A stretch of 27,210 nucleotides of DNA from NCBI GenBank assembly GCA_043754535.1, contig JAYUUN010000105.1, forward strand, positions 62,001-89,210, written 5' to 3'. The translations under genes and the position numbers were made by a program. Shown here one piece after another: positions 1 to 14,545 of the stretch (positions are counted from its first letter, which is position 1; every line of letters begins with the position of its first letter). This DNA comes from Chloroflexota bacterium (lineage in GTDB: Bacteria; Chloroflexota; Chloroflexia; QHBQ01). The notes under the pieces were generated by a model. That model made no database searches. It was not told the origin of the DNA and saw only the letters and a list, made by a program, of their open reading frames with translations.

Positions 1-833
1 CCGTCACCGCTGGTCTGCTCATCGCCGAGGGCCTGCTCGTCACTGCCCGTAGTCTGGGCGGTGAAGACAATTTTCTGCTTGGGTGCGGGCCGGTAGTCCT
101 TGTCGCTGATGGTAGCGACGAGCGTAAGTTTGGTGGTATCGTCGGCTGACACAAAGGCAGAGGAGGATTGCAGGCGCAGGTAGCCATTGCCAGCACTGTG
201 CTGGTCGCTCTGGGGGGGCGTGTTGTCAGTCGGCAGGGTGGGGGTAGTGCCGCCACTCTTGTCGCCAAAATCCTTACTGCCCGCACTGCTCTTGGCAAAC
301 TCTTTCTCGCTCACCTCGGTACCACTAGTCTTGTCGAGGATAAAGAAGTTGCTGCTCACGCCCTTCCAGAGGTCGTCTCCGCTCAACTTGCCCTCAATGG
401 CTCTCTGGAAGTCGCTGGCCTGGGCAGCGAAGACTAGCCAGTAGTTACCTATCTCTAGCGCACTGAAAAGGCTGGCAGACTTGGGGTAGTAGGTGTGCAA
501 GGCGTAGAAGCCTTCAACCGCCTGCTGAATGTTGTTCTCGTCCTCATAGGCGTGTTGGCTGGTTGGGTCGAAGGTGGGGGAGTAGAGGCGCATGATCACG
601 CCAACGTTGCTGCGGTCTACGTTACCCTTACTGTCGGTCACATAGCCGACATCAACTATGCTGTAGCCCTTGCTGCTCAGGTAGCTAGAGACGCTGTTCC
701 CGGCTGCGTCGCTGCTGCTGCCTACCCCGCTGCTACTTTGGGCGCGGGCAGTCTGGGGCGTAAGCAGGCTGATCGTCAGCAGCAGCACAGCCAGCCCTGC
801 CAGCATTGCCATCCCCTGGCGCAGCAGTTTCAT
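1..833 (-). CDS. Secreted/surface protein, 3' end truncated by window edge; possible Ig-like (Big-1-type) domain starting near the edge
   Basis: Not in ORF track. ATG at 833 with GGAG upstream. Reads MKLLRQGMAMLAGLAVLLLTISLLTPQTARA|QSS (Sec signal, ARA cleavage site) and stays open to the window edge. Ends ...ADDTTKLTLVATISDKDYRPAPKQKIVFTA, which resembles a Big-1 repeat. Confidence 0.8.
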   Translation of the reverse strand, partial: MKLLRQGMAMLAGLAVLLLTISLLTPQTARAQSSSGVGSSSDAAGNSVSSYLSSKGYSIVDVGYVTDSKGNVDRSNVGVIMRLYSPTFDPTSQHAYEDENNIQQAVEGFYALHTYYPKSASLFSALEIGNYWLVFAAQASDFQRAIEGKLSGDDLWKGVSSNFFILDKTSGTEVSEKEFAKSSAGSKDFGDKSGGTTPTLPTDNTPPQSDQHSAGNGYLRLQSSSAFVSADDTTKLTLVATISDKDYRPAPKQKIVFTAQTTGSDEQALGDEQTSGD

Positions 834-10767: not shown

Positions 10768-11790
10768 TCAGCGTTCGATGTTACCAAAGGTGTCGCGGGT
10801 AGCACCATCTGCGTCCTTGCTGCTTACCTGGTTGGGGTCGGCAGCGGCGCGGGCGGGCGCATTACTGTTGTCAATATAGCCACCTGCCTGGTTCACCGCG
10901 TCGCCTACCGCACTGGCTGCGTCGGGTTGGTCGGTGCGGAGGCTCTCGCTAGCGGCATAGCTCGTGGTTGCAGCGTACTGTGAACCAGTGGTGGTCTTGG
11001 CGTAGTCCCCCCCACCTTCGGAGCCAGCCAGCCCAGCATTGCCCATTGCGGCATCGCTGGCAGCGGCATAGGCAGCTTCCTGATCGCGCAGGGCGGGGTC
11101 GTGTGCGTCGAAGTAGTTGGCGGTGGAGTTGTTGCCCGCCTCTATCTCGCTGGCCGGGTAGACCCCACCAGAGAGCGCATCGCTAGCAACCATCGTCGGG
11201 CTGACGGCGGTCATCCTGCCACTGGTGGTGCTACCAATCCCTGCATTGCTAGCGGTCAGCGCAGGGCTGCTGCCCATGCGGTTCTGCACATCCTCAGCCC
11301 CAGCATCAAGCAGGATGCGGCGGGTAGCAGCCTCATCCTGACCCTGCGGGTCAACGGTGAGCAGGATACTGCCCTCGCCTACTGCTGCCTGGTAGTATTG
11401 CGCCTCCTCGGATGGCACACCCGCATTGGTCAGGCTGCCCAGCAGCCCCCCTGCGACGGCCCCGGTTGCCGCGCCAATGCCAGCTCCAGCGGCAGTCCAG
11501 GCCAGCGCACTACCTGCAAGAGCAATAGGGCCGAGGATCGGCAGGGTGAGGATAGTACCAGTGGCGATCAAAGCGGCCAGTGCGCCACCGACGACCGTGC
11601 CTTCAACAGCCCCCGCCCCAGCAACAGTACCAGCATCAGTTACATCGTTGGCAGCGGCCATCGTCTTGCTGGTGTCGCGGTTTTGGGCGACCACGCCGAT
11701 CTGGTTGGCCTCATAACCAGCCGCCTTCAGATCGCTGATCGCTCGCTCGGCGGCACTCTCAGTGCGGAACAAACCTACTACAGTAGCCAT
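10768..11790 (-). CDS. General stress protein (YflT/17M-like N-terminal domain with glycine-zipper hairpin), paralogue B
   Basis: SD AGAGGAGGAG then ATG 11790. MATVVGLF...AERAI..LKAAGY...IGVVA, GxxxG-rich TM hairpin, GVPSEEAQYY...G.ILLTV; low-complexity tail. Confidence 0.82.
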   Translation of the reverse strand: MATVVGLFRTESAAERAISDLKAAGYEANQIGVVAQNRDTSKTMAAANDVTDAGTVAGAGAVEGTVVGGALAALIATGTILTLPILGPIALAGSALAWTAAGAGIGAATGAVAGGLLGSLTNAGVPSEEAQYYQAAVGEGSILLTVDPQGQDEAATRRILLDAGAEDVQNRMGSSPALTASNAGIGSTTSGRMTAVSPTMVASDALSGGVYPASEIEAGNNSTANYFDAHDPALRDQEAAYAAASDAAMGNAGLAGSEGGGDYAKTTTGSQYAATTSYAASESLRTDQPDAASAVGDAVNQAGGYIDNSNAPARAAADPNQVSSKDADGATRDTFGNIER

Positions 11791-11919
11791 TCTCGCTCCT
11801 CCTCTTGGCTGGCGAACTAGTTGCCGAACAAAGACGCTGCCCGCGTTGCCAACCACTGCGGTTCAGGGTTGTGGCTGCGGGCAGAGTCTGCTAGTGGTTA
11901 AGTTGGCTGGCGGTCAGCC

Positions 11920-12822
11920 TTAGCTGTGGTCGCCAAGCTCGTTGCGGACATCACCCTCGGCGCGCTTCATCTTGCCTTCAACCACGTCGCCGGTGCCGCC
12001 GGCCTGCAAGTTGTCGTTGTTCAACACGTCACCAACGCCGCGCTTGATGTTGCCGAAGGTCTCCTGCGCTGCGCCACCAACCTGGTCATGGTCGGGGAGA
12101 ACCTTGCCAGCATCGTGGGCTACATTGCCAGCTGCGTTGCCAGTGTTGTTCGCCGCAGTGCCAATGGCGTTGCCAGTGTTGTCCATTGCACTACCAGCAG
12201 CATAGCCAGCACTACCCATCGCGCTGCCAGCGGTGTAGCCAGCGTTGCCCGTCGTGCTGCTAGTGCTGTCAGCATAGGTGCTGCTCATGCTGCCAGTCCC
12301 CGTGCTGCTGCTGTCGCCCTGGAAGCTGACAGCCCCAGCAGTGCTGAGGATTTGGCGGGTCTGGCTTTCGTTCTTGTTGCTGTGGACGGTAAGGAGGATG
12401 CCACCCTGACCGACTTCGGTCTGGTAGAAGCGGGCCTCATCCTCTGGTACGCCAGAGTCGGTCAGGCTGCCGAGCAGACCACCAGCGATAGCCCCAGTTG
12501 CGGCACCGATACCAGCCCCAGCGGCGGTCCAGGCCAATGCGCTACCTGCGAGGGCGATAGGGCCGAGGATTGGCAGGGTGAGGATAGTACCAGTGGCGAT
12601 CAAGGCCGCCAGCGCGCCACCGACGACGGTGCCTTCGACGGCCCCCGCCCCAGCGGCAGTACCAGCGTCAGTCACATTGTTGTCAGCGGCCATTGCCTTG
12701 CTGGTGCCGCGGTTCTGGGCGACTACGCCGATCTCACTTGCCTCGTAACCAGCAGTTTTGAGGGCGTTGATTGCCTGCTCGGCATCGCTCTCATTGCGGA
12801 ACAAACCTGCTACGGTAGCCAT
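11920..12822 (-). CDS. General stress protein (YflT/17M-like domain) with C-terminal CsbD-like domain, paralogue A
   Basis: SD AAAGGAG. Same N-terminal domain as paralogue B. C-terminus DQVGGAAQETFGNIKRGVGDVLNNDNLQAGGTGDVVEGKMKRAEGDVR fits the CsbD pattern. Confidence 0.85.
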   Translation of the reverse strand: MATVAGLFRNESDAEQAINALKTAGYEASEIGVVAQNRGTSKAMAADNNVTDAGTAAGAGAVEGTVVGGALAALIATGTILTLPILGPIALAGSALAWTAAGAGIGAATGAIAGGLLGSLTDSGVPEDEARFYQTEVGQGGILLTVHSNKNESQTRQILSTAGAVSFQGDSSSTGTGSMSSTYADSTSSTTGNAGYTAGSAMGSAGYAAGSAMDNTGNAIGTAANNTGNAAGNVAHDAGKVLPDHDQVGGAAQETFGNIKRGVGDVLNNDNLQAGGTGDVVEGKMKRAEGDVRNELGDHS

Positions 12823-12930
12823 GTTCTTCGTTCTCCTTTAGGGTTGTATTGGCTGAGATCAGCCGCTTAGGATCTTGTAAGTCACGGGTGGCTGTTGTTG
12901 CGGCCACTGTACTTCCTGCTCGCTCCTCTA

Positions 12931-12956
12931 TAACGCTCCCGGCTCCACCCTGTTAC
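12931..12956 (-). promoter_or_regulatory. ECF-sigma-like promoter GTAAC-N16-CGTTA
   Basis: Reverse complement of gttac (12952-12956) and taacg (12931-12935), 16-nt spacer, upstream of the stress genes. Confidence 0.5.
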
Positions 12957-12987
12957 GGGCGGCCCCATCGCCGTTCATCACCTTATG

Positions 12988-13003
12988 AGCAACCTGCGTG
13001 CCA
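12988..13003 (-). promoter_or_regulatory. Sigma54 (-24/-12) promoter TGGCACGCAGGTTGCT
   Basis: Exact match to TGGCACG-N4-TTGCW, oriented toward the stress genes. Confidence 0.75.
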
Positions 13004-13121
13004 CTAGTCGCCCTAAATTAGCGACTCGCCCCAAAATCGCTAATCAACGACCTGGCTACTGGTGTGCGGCAGTGGTCAACGCCGATTCTGCAAATTGGGG
13101 GTTGGTTCTGGACAAAACCTC

Positions 13122-13151
13122 TTGACAAAGGCCATCGTCCTGTGTTACAAT
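13122..13151 (+). promoter_or_regulatory. Strong sigma70-type promoter TTGACA-N18-TACAAT with TG extension
   Basis: TTGACA at 13122-13127 and TGTTACAAT at 13143-13151. Confidence 0.75.
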
Positions 13152-13229
13152 TCTTCCTACGAGGACAGCCTCTGCCGCCACTAGCAGTTCGACGGCATCG
13201 GTAACGACAGGGAAAGGAGGCACACGCCA

Positions 13230-13286
13230 ATGTACCCTTTGATCAATCCTCACCTCTTGCACATGAGGTTTCAGACTGACAGTTAG
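13230..13286 (+). CDS. Candidate 18-aa small ORF MYPLINPHLLHMRFQTDS
   Basis: AAAGGAGG at 13213-13220, 9 nt before ATG 13230; TAG at 13284-13286. Confidence 0.4.
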   Translation: MYPLINPHLLHMRFQTDS

Positions 13287-13330
13287 GCCCTGAATAGGGG
13301 CGTACCTGAGGACATCTGAAGAAAAGAGAC

Positions 13331-13368
13331 AACCCCATCGGCCAGATCGGTCAGTGGGGTTTCTTTTT
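13331..13368 (+). terminator. Intrinsic terminator
   Basis: AACCCCAT/GTGGGGTT stem with inner GGCC/GGTC, running into TTTCTTTTT; A-rich 5' flank. Confidence 0.75.
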
Positions 13369-13416
13369 GCCTCCACTCCTGCGCTCCCGCTCCACTGCGT
13401 GCAGCAGATCACAATC

Positions 13417-13446
13417 TTGCAGCACGAGTCCGGCATTTGGTATCAT
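13417..13446 (+). promoter_or_regulatory. Probable pan/coa operon promoter TTGCAG-N18-TATCAT with TG extension
   Basis: TTGCAG at 13417-13422 and TGGTATCAT at 13438-13446. Confidence 0.55.
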
Positions 13447-13479
13447 CCATTTAACCACTTAGAGCGATAGTGCCTGAGA

Positions 13480-13567
13480 TGGTCATAGAGCGAAAAGATA
13501 CGGTTGGGCGTTCTGCGCCATCTACCGTCCTGCTCCCTTGACCAGCCGCACACGCTAGTCTATGCGG
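13480..13567 (+). promoter_or_regulatory. Structured 5' leader of the pan operon (candidate cis-regulatory RNA, possibly pan-motif-like)
   Basis: Long bulged hairpin TGGTCA/TGACCA, GAGC/GCTC, ACGGT/ACCGT, GGCG/CGCC (13480-13544), followed by a CCGCA/TGCGG hairpin abutting the SD. Confidence 0.55.
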
Positions 13568-13579
13568 GGAGGGCTGCGG

Positions 13580-14545
13580 ATGAGCGAGGACATGGCAACA
13601 GGCTGGCTGGCTGACGAGAGCCACAGTTGGCGGATTGGGTTTGTGGGGGCCGGGCGGGTTGGTAGCGCACTGGCGATCCTGCTGCGACAGGCAGGCTATC
13701 GGATCAGCGCGATCAGCAGCGAGTACCGCCGCAGTGCCGAGGCGTTGGCCCAGGTATTGGGCGATAGCGGGTTGGTGGCCGCAGATGCGGTGGCGGTAGC
13801 CGAGCGCAGTGACCTGATCTTTATCACCACGCCAGACGATGCTATCGCGCCAGTGGCAGGCCAGATCGGGCGGGCAGGGGTGAGTGCGGGTAAGGCTGTG
13901 GTGCATACCAGCGGGGCGTTGCCCAGCCTGGTGCTGGCGGGGGTGCGCGAACATGGGGCGTTGATCGCTAGTCTGCACCCGCTGCAAGCCTTCGCCAGCG
14001 TCGAGGCGGCCCTTAGTAAACTGCGGGGTAGCAGCTTCGCTATCGAGGGCGACCCCCTGCTGTTGCCAGCCCTGACCCGGCTGGTCAGCGACCTGGGTGG
14101 TGTGCCAATGGCGATCCGCCCGCAGGACAAGGTGCTGTACCACGCGGCAGCGGTGATCGCAGCAAACTATGCAGTGACCCTGGCGGATGTGGCGACCAGC
14201 CTGCTGGCCCAGACTGGTATCCCGAAGGCACAGGCGTTGCAGGCTTTGCTACCGCTCTTGCAGGGTAGCCTGGACAACCTGAAGGAGCTTGGCCTGCCGC
14301 ACGCCCTAACCGGCCCGGTGGCGCGGGGTGATGTGGGGACGGTGCGCCGCCACCTGACTGCCCTCGACGCAACCGACCGCGAGGTAGCCGCACTCTATCG
14401 CAGTCTGGCGGCCTTTACCCTGCCCGTCGCCCTCGGCAAGGGGCTGGATGCGGATAAGCTGAACGCGCTGCACGATCTGCTGACCGAACCAGCGGCTAGC
14501 GATGCCGACCTGTACGATGACAGCACGATTGCAGAGGCAATGTAA
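13580..14545 (+). CDS. panG: Rossmann-like / DUF2520 oxidoreductase, probable PanG-type ketopantoate reductase
   Basis: GFVGAGRVG, ITTPDDAI, VHTSGA, SLHPLQAF, LYHAAAVIAAN and LTGPVARGD; first gene of the pan operon. Confidence 0.8.
   Translation: MSEDMATGWLADESHSWRIGFVGAGRVGSALAILLRQAGYRISAISSEYRRSAEALAQVLGDSGLVAADAVAVAERSDLIFITTPDDAIAPVAGQIGRAGVSAGKAVVHTSGALPSLVLAGVREHGALIASLHPLQAFASVEAALSKLRGSSFAIEGDPLLLPALTRLVSDLGGVPMAIRPQDKVLYHAAAVIAANYAVTLADVATSLLAQTGIPKAQALQALLPLLQGSLDNLKELGLPHALTGPVARGDVGTVRRHLTALDATDREVAALYRSLAAFTLPVALGKGLDADKLNALHDLLTEPAASDADLYDDSTIAEAM

Follow-up and report, generated by a model that had tools for sequence, protein, structure and literature searches.

We identified a self-contained transcription unit between 13,122 and 13,368 bp (forward strand) of the window (the whole stretch of 27,210 nucleotides analysed here, from a Chloroflexota bacterium), which is probably an independent, monocistronic gene for a microprotein of 18 residues, with a stable mRNA and a product that acts in trans. 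Its small ORF (MYPLINPHLLHMRFQTDS, 18 codons followed by TAG, at 13,230-13,286, forward strand) belongs to a conserved peptide family, and the comparison of its members makes it very likely that this is a conserved small gene that is translated. The unit adds a new family to the stand-alone bacterial microprotein genes, a known kind, with an unusual design in which a hairpin directly follows the stop codon. The initial annotation had proposed at this place a strong promoter, an ORF of 18 amino acids and an intrinsic terminator, matching no known RNA family, and all of these are borne out by the analyses described below; its sequestered Shine-Dalgarno (SD) sequence and its attenuator of the downstream operon are not.

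The promoter is composed of the -35 hexamer TTGACA (13,122-13,127, forward strand) and the extended -10 element TGtTACAAT (13,143-13,151, forward strand), with an 18-nt spacer. It has 11 of 12 consensus matches together with the TG of an extended -10, and the extended -10 shows no change in the same-genus relative. It is the one site found by a promoter scan of 12,500-14,000 (vs 0.4 ± 0.7 sites in shuffled sequences), and the minus strand of the same region gave no promoter-like site. The 5′ leader is about 72 nt long (13,158-13,229, forward strand; start predicted from the -10 element), and its sequence conservation is confined to the genus. Two small leader hairpins had been drawn: TGCCG/CGGCA is part of the minimum-energy structure of the window RNA, but TCG-GTAA-CGA is absent from it. 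The SD sequence AAAGGAGG (13,213-13,220, forward strand) lies 9 nt 5′ of the ATG, and there is no in-frame start upstream of this ATG in the window. Every member listed has a strong SD ahead of the small ORF, and all complete family members have an AGGAGG-type SD followed by an ATG after 6-10 nt. The G+C content is 0.52 at 13,001-13,500, vs about 0.60-0.66 over most of the remaining window, which marks a non-coding island containing the unit; an antisense ORF of 126 aa at 13,056-13,436 has no Pfam match.

We also checked if the SD can be hidden by the leader, since the initial annotation read the unit as a possible translational switch in which GCCTCT (13,168-13,173) pairs with GGAGGC (13,216-13,221). 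Both stretches are present, but the helix GCCUCU:GGAGGC has a predicted pair probability of 0.002-0.003, with a penalty of 3.8 kcal/mol if forced, and no leader complement to the SD is found in the other genus of the window's family (f1). According to the predicted pair probabilities, the SD bases 13,213-13,218 are unpaired at 74-99% and the AUG at 68-100%, while G13219 and G13220 are part of a small local stem. A second proposed anti-SD, TGCCTCC (13,368-13,374), is present in the window but reads TGTCCCC in the same-genus relative. With an SD predicted to be open and proposed anti-SDs that are not conserved, the switch is not supported for the window. Across 37 loci the median predicted unpaired probability of the SD is 0.57 (0.90 in the window), and it is below 0.3 in 10 of the 37, seven of which belong to family f8. 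In these f8 loci (L048-L053 and L057), nearly the whole SD is predicted to be in pairs (unpaired probability 0.00-0.25), and the peptides carry an N-terminal extension of 3-4 residues; by these predicted folds, the paired SD and the extended N-terminus may represent a lineage-specific translational control.

The peptides of the family are 16-21 residues long and share the consensus M-x3-K-x-H-V-L-E-M-R-Y-Q-V-D-R, the last 10-11 residues being the most strongly conserved part; R13, Q15, and D17 (window numbering) do not vary among 22 distinct peptides. In the peptide alignment, charged and polar residues are found throughout the 18 positions, and there is no run of one amino acid or repeated residue class. 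We examined the last 10 codons of 23 distinct nucleotide sequences for a coding signature. The entropies at codon positions 1, 2, and 3 are 0.64, 0.25, and 1.24, i.e., the third position varies most; and pairwise codon differences are 943 synonymous vs 747 non-synonymous in frame, compared to 161 vs 1445 and 48 vs 1512 in the two shifted frames. All six codons are used for the invariant arginine, and all four for valine. In complete members the stop follows the invariant D after 0-1 codon, the residue in between being R, S, T, I, L, E, or none, and all three stop codons occur in the family. For example, the ORF in the other genus of f1 (MFPLLKPHVLFVRYQTDR) has the same length and stop position as the window ORF and a comparable SD-to-ATG spacing, and differs from it by three synonymous and eight replacement codon changes and by its stop codon. 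On these sequence comparisons, the small ORF is a conserved protein-coding gene under protein-level purifying selection, in agreement with the small-protein mRNA that was one of the readings first offered for the unit.

The family extends well beyond the genus. A BLAST search of 41 genomes found the unit in four, including the window's own genome (G000): the copy in the same-genus relative has four changes from the -35 to the end of the U-tract, with more differences in the flanks, and the match to the two copies from the other f1 genus is confined to the ORF and the 3′ part. These four sequences were used to build a covariance model, which gave weak hits when run over 40 genomes of the order; nine of ten weak-hit loci were inspected, of which four contain the small ORF and five are terminator-like chance matches without it. 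We then used a peptide profile (A5, built from 22 distinct peptides, with a match cut-off of E ≤ 1e-5), which matches 33 of the 40 genomes of the order; among the other seven genomes, six have no match and one has a weak match (E = 0.46). This count includes two unpublished genomes as positives (G007 and G015) and leaves the weak one (G034) uncounted; minus these three it is 31 of 37. In a sample of the class (111 genomes in all, namely those chosen for at least 90% completeness and G000), the same profile matches 23 of the 111, including 9 of 10 genomes in f2, 1 of 2 in f3, 9 of 16 in f6, and 3 of 5 in f8, and has no match in the nine other families of the sample.

We also searched with back-translated DNA patterns. 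A strict pattern yielded 26 matches in 25 of 401 class genomes, vs four for the reversed control, and none in 135 genomes from other classes of the phylum or in 15 further genomes of the same class. The first strict pattern, run over genome contigs, picked up 10 loci, three of which (in Chloroflexi/Chloroflexia MAGs) have the unit; the other seven lack the motif followed by a stop and were rejected. A second pattern found six metagenome loci, all having the ORF, the SD, and the stop-adjacent stem. In these searches the family is limited to part of the class Chloroflexia, in which the peptide is found in several families, and alignments indicate protein-level conservation across five of them.

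We find no earlier description of the family. Rfam gave no match at gathering score for the whole window, nor at E ≤ 10 for 12,700-13,700, and in eight other member loci it gave two matches only, both below the gathering score; no tRNA or tmRNA was found. Searches of Pfam and NCBIfam with peptide versions of 21-32 aa identified no family (one chance hit, E = 0.029), exact look-ups of four sequences drew no match among about 15 billion collected proteins, and literature searches on the peptide strings, Chloroflexi small ORFs and sRNAs, and Chloroflexota smORFs gave nothing on this family among the papers listed.

The sequence is present in RNA libraries. Twelve public runs contain the stretch: ten are DNA runs, a possible source, and two are metatranscriptome runs from one study, whose contigs match 13,181-13,345 (165 nt) and 13,181-13,329 without mismatch and lie wholly within the predicted unit. 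The contigs show presence in an RNA library; they are silent on strand, ends, and level, and DNA carry-over is possible. In one of the two metatranscriptomes, contigs also fall on the DUF2520 gene. Another run (X13) yielded no placed contig, and the stretches 12,823-13,180 and 13,346-13,651 have no RNA contig in the two metatranscriptome runs; neither result is evidence of absence or of transcript ends.

The same architecture is found in the other members. Among 40 loci with distinct copies, 37 were scorable: all 37 have a promoter of the form TTGACN-16..18-TAnnnT, with a leader of 51-83 nt, and 34 have a terminator hairpin with a T-run about 45-135 nt after the last stop. The predicted transcripts have a median length of 202 nt (range 163-363). 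In five f3 loci (L025, L034, L035, L043, and L044) there are two SD-ORF-hairpin modules about 150 nt apart, within a single promoter-to-terminator unit that is predicted to give one transcript; TTG or GTG is often the start codon of the second ORF, and the peptides of the two modules are not the same (KTHVLEM... vs NPRVLEM...).

Downstream of the small ORF the window RNA is predicted to be highly structured. A GC hairpin of five bp, GCCCU-GAAUA-GGGGC (13,287-13,301, forward strand), begins at the first base after the stop codon, and is followed by a spacer (13,302-13,321, forward strand) with the motifs AGGACA and GAAGAAA, both common to the two genera of f1 in the alignments; in the fold, the A-rich end of the spacer pairs with the U-tract. 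The intrinsic terminator (13,322-13,368, forward strand) has an interrupted stem (core AACCCCA/UGGGGUU) and the tract UUUCUUUUU, and does not differ in the same-genus relative; a simple terminator scan found none at the unit, presumably because the loop is longer than the scan's 8-nt limit. The complete RNA of 212 nt folds at -76.8 kcal/mol, better than all 200 shuffled sequences (z = -3.6). Part of the ORF can also pair, CCUCA with UGAGG inside the ORF in f1, and CUCACG with the upstream CGUGAG in f2.

Across the family, the stem starts 0-2 nt 3′ of the stop codon in 23 of 26 rows. The energy of this stem alone is unremarkable (median z of -1.3, with z < -2 in 7 of the 26 rows), and the case for it therefore rests on its position and on covariation in family f2. 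The f2 structure set comprises 18 species of one genus, and its 3′ part aligns well. Here a stop-adjacent hairpin of 14 bp and the terminator have 97.4% of cells paired; 19 of the 28 pairs in these two 3′ helices are changed on both sides. None of 500 shuffles reaches this, and slid controls all score far lower. For the stop-adjacent hairpin alone, 8 of 14 pairs have changes on both sides. An unpaired ACCGNAC between the two helices is nearly invariant, within f2 only. The f2 leaders have a 5′-terminal hairpin in 18 of 18, with zero pairs changed on both sides, and a CGUGAG/CUCACG stem around the SD and AUG, likewise in 18 of 18 and with zero double-sided changes; over all families this second stem has 62% of cells paired, a level reached by 19 of 500 shuffles, and its family-wide status is not established. 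RNAalifold returned no consensus pairs for 22 members from all families, no unpaired motif is common to all families, and the sequence outside the ORF diverges fast. The conserved RNA structure exceeds what a plain mRNA needs: the covarying hairpin and terminator of f2, its ACCGNAC, its stem around the SD and AUG, and the paired SD of f8 fit an added RNA-level or translation-coupled role.

The microprotein gene would work as follows. The near-consensus promoter of the sigma-70 type would start an RNA of about 210 nt; the strong SD, predicted to be open, would drive translation of the ORF; and the stop-adjacent GC hairpin and the intrinsic terminator would close the transcript. The hairpins at the 5′ and 3′ ends most likely make it a compact, nuclease-resistant mRNA. 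The peptide itself would most likely be a small protein acting in trans: within its conserved half, hydrophobic residues (M, F/Y, V/I/T) and the invariant polar ones (R, Q, D) alternate in a manner resembling a beta-strand, and such a strand-like peptide may dock onto a partner protein.

Alternatively, the RNA of about 200 nt may both encode the peptide and act itself in trans as a riboregulator, by base-pairing or protein binding through the unpaired stretch that is conserved between the stop-adjacent hairpin and the terminator. Such a dual function would be in line with the unit's own promoter and terminator and its sRNA-like size (the median of 202 nt), with the fold of the whole RNA relative to shuffles, and with what is kept around the spacer, i.e., the nearly invariant ACCGNAC between covarying helices in f2 and the two motifs shared by both genera in f1. 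However, not one unpaired motif occurs in all families, RNAalifold finds no common pairs, everything outside the ORF diverges rapidly, and the hairpins are explicable as mRNA-stabilising elements; we therefore regard a dual-function RNA as unlikely.

A special form of this idea, which we consider quite unlikely, would make the RNA report on its own translation. The conserved nascent peptide would slow the ribosome on the last codons, where it has to unwind the covarying, stop-abutting hairpin; opening of the hairpin would expose the conserved unpaired spacer (ACCGNAC in f2, AGGACA...GAAGAAA in f1), and the RNA of about 200 nt would be active in trans only while it is translated. If true, such a peptide-gated dual-function RNA would be of a kind not yet described.

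The peptide could also be a sensor and not a product, with the nascent chain and the stop-abutting hairpin jointly forming a cis element: if the ribosome pauses or stalls when it reaches the end of the ORF, it would hold the hairpin open and change stability, termination, or ribosome loading. Conservation indeed peaks in the last 10-11 residues, which would lie in the exit tunnel at termination, and the N-terminal length is variable (16-21 aa in total). In 23 of 26 rows a stable stem starts within 0-2 nt of the stop codon; this stem, which covaries in f2, has to be unwound by the terminating ribosome. Against this, three different stop codons are in use, and the residue after the invariant D varies or is absent, so the register to the stop is not fixed. 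There is no conserved downstream gene to control (see below), and the tandem copies in f3 suggest that the dosage of the peptide matters. By eye, an alternative of 4-5 bp can be drawn in f1, in which GGGG or AGGGC pairs with the 5′ arm of the hairpin that follows, but antiterminator-type pairing was not found as a feature common to the families. Altogether, the cis element is distinctly improbable.

The genes around the unit differ between families. In f1, a divergent gene with a YflT domain and a CsbD-like tail lies upstream in the window, with DUF2520-panB-panC-coaX-coaBC downstream; the sister genus has the divergent YflT-domain gene as well, with a further terminator and a convergent FAA-hydrolase gene downstream. 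In f2 the neighbours are a divergent MerR-type gene and a convergent M29 peptidase; in f3, either an M3 peptidase in convergent orientation or an hsp20 gene that has a promoter of its own (at L043 this promoter sits 3′ of the unit's terminator); and in f8, an NlpC/P60 gene, among others. The 14 largest clusters of neighbour proteins are each confined to one family, no neighbour gene is conserved across families, and the downstream gene is convergent in L003/L004 and in 11 f2 loci. A type I toxin mRNA was considered and rejected, as there is neither a hydrophobic membrane-spanning peptide nor a promoter-like site on the minus strand of 12,500-14,000.

Some of these neighbourhoods have features of their own. 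The window carries two tandem genes of the YflT domain (heat-induced stress protein) on the reverse strand, at 10,768-11,856 and 11,920-12,822, the second with the CsbD-like tail, and a YflT-domain gene is divergent upstream of the small ORF in both f1 genera. At L029, a perfect inverted repeat (TTTGACGT-TC-ACGTCAAA, at about 1385-1402) lies upstream of the -35 and may be an operator; sister loci L020 and L031 have a divergent gene for a MerR-type regulator according to Pfam, and the upstream ORF of L029 clusters with them. Peptidases of three unrelated families adjoin the small ORF in f2, f3, and f8: M29 is convergent in the 11 f2 loci (including L022, L029, and L031), M3 is convergent in f3 (L025 and L034), and NlpC/P60 is downstream in f8 (L051 and L052). 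This adjacency may be chance, and the peptidase and stress themes are both post hoc; the link to stress suggested by the family-specific neighbours (YflT/CsbD, Hsp20, and MerR-type) is only a hint.

The region between the unit's terminator and the DUF2520-panB-panC-coaX-coaBC operon (13,400-13,561) is almost identical in the same-genus relative. It contains TTGCAG (13,417-13,422), an 18-nt spacer, and TGgTATCAT (13,438-13,446), followed by a leader of about 115 nt; these sequences make a candidate promoter and leader for the pantothenate/CoA operon. Nothing in Rfam matches 13,400-13,561, the pan motif included.

The composition of the neighbourhoods bears on whether the peptide is the precursor of a modified product (a RiPP or a peptide-derived cofactor) whose enzymes are encoded elsewhere in the genome. 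In precursor genes of the pqqA type, a hairpin follows a very short ORF that is strongly expressed, a layout that the unit would share by analogy, and the invariant polar R, Q, and D adjoin an aromatic residue. However, neither the window's 22 long ORFs nor the relatives' flanks include a maturase-type gene (radical SAM, YcaO, lanthipeptide synthetase, or similar), no neighbour is kept across families, and the peptide has no Cys/Ser/Thr pattern, its aromatic position being F or Y; a precursor is very unlikely.

A non-coding sRNA, with the ORF as a by-product of RNA-level conservation, could be suspected from the missing annotation, the missing Rfam family, and the pairing of part of the ORF, but it does not predict the codon-position pattern, the synonymous excess in one frame only, the use of all six arginine codons, or the conserved ATG, SD, and stop; since these mark the ORF as coding, we find this reading highly improbable. 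A leader-peptide attenuator feeding the pantothenate/CoA genes, the other function first proposed, has in its favour the order of promoter, ORF, hairpins, and terminator upstream of the co-oriented DUF2520-panB-panC-coaX-coaBC operon in the window, but has almost no chance of being right and is already contradicted by the comparisons between relatives, since downstream genes differ between them and are sometimes convergent (the arrangement exists in the window's genus only), the unit has its own promoter in 37 of 37 loci and its own terminator in 34 of 37, the peptide has no regulatory codon run, and a separate conserved promoter-like site (13,417-13,446) with a leader stands between the terminator and the operon.

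Returning to the microprotein gene, we compared it with the known systems that it resembles. MgtS, MntS, and AcrZ of E. coli and SpoVM of B. subtilis are encoded by stand-alone bacterial small-protein genes. Similar to these, the Chloroflexia unit escapes gene finders and consists of a tiny ORF served by a promoter, an SD, and a terminator of its own, and proteins of this type act, or are thought to act, by binding a larger protein. Unlike them, the Chloroflexia peptide is shorter (16-21 aa) and has too little hydrophobicity for a membrane helix, and its gene has a covarying stop-abutting hairpin and is limited to part of one class. SgrS/SgrT, RNAIII/delta-haemolysin, and SR1/SR1P are dual-function sRNAs. 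Like them, the unit combines a small ORF with conserved structure outside it, on an independent transcript of some 200 nt that has a promoter and a terminator, but it lacks a non-coding motif common to all families; dual-function sRNAs are treated in the available parts of two reviews (PMC12310071, PMC12612679).

The resemblance to leader peptides is mainly one of layout. The peptides trpL, pheL, and hisL belong to transcription attenuators. Similar to these and to peTrpL of Sinorhizobium meliloti, the unit has a promoter, hairpins, a terminator, and a peptide ORF in the range of 14-20 codons, so that its RNA is short and terminated. The accessible parts of the work on S. meliloti describe peTrpL as a trans-acting leader peptide and rnTrpL as its sRNA (PMC7298713, 10.1101/606483), a precedent, as far as those parts go, that so small a peptide can act in trans. 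Unlike all of these, the Chloroflexia unit has no regulatory codon runs and no conserved downstream operon, and often has a convergent gene next to it. TnaC is a regulatory arrest peptide that acts at termination. The Chloroflexia peptide resembles TnaC in that a very short ORF has its conservation anchored at the C-terminal end, and in that RNA structure lies directly 3′ of this ORF; in the Chloroflexia peptide, however, the stop codon, last residue, and register are variable, and there is no controlled gene.

Overall, a protein family of only 16-21 residues has been kept in two further families besides the order, where 33 of 40 genomes have it, and it reveals a gap in annotation, since the peptide is missing from Pfam, NCBIfam, and Rfam. 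The unit also offers a design example for very short genes, combining a strong SD with a hairpin in the 5′ leader and a stable stem right after the stop codon, and provides a defined experimental target in a phylum where small proteins appear to be little studied. If the hairpin and the peptide do cooperate, the family would represent a new kind of translation-coupled RNA.
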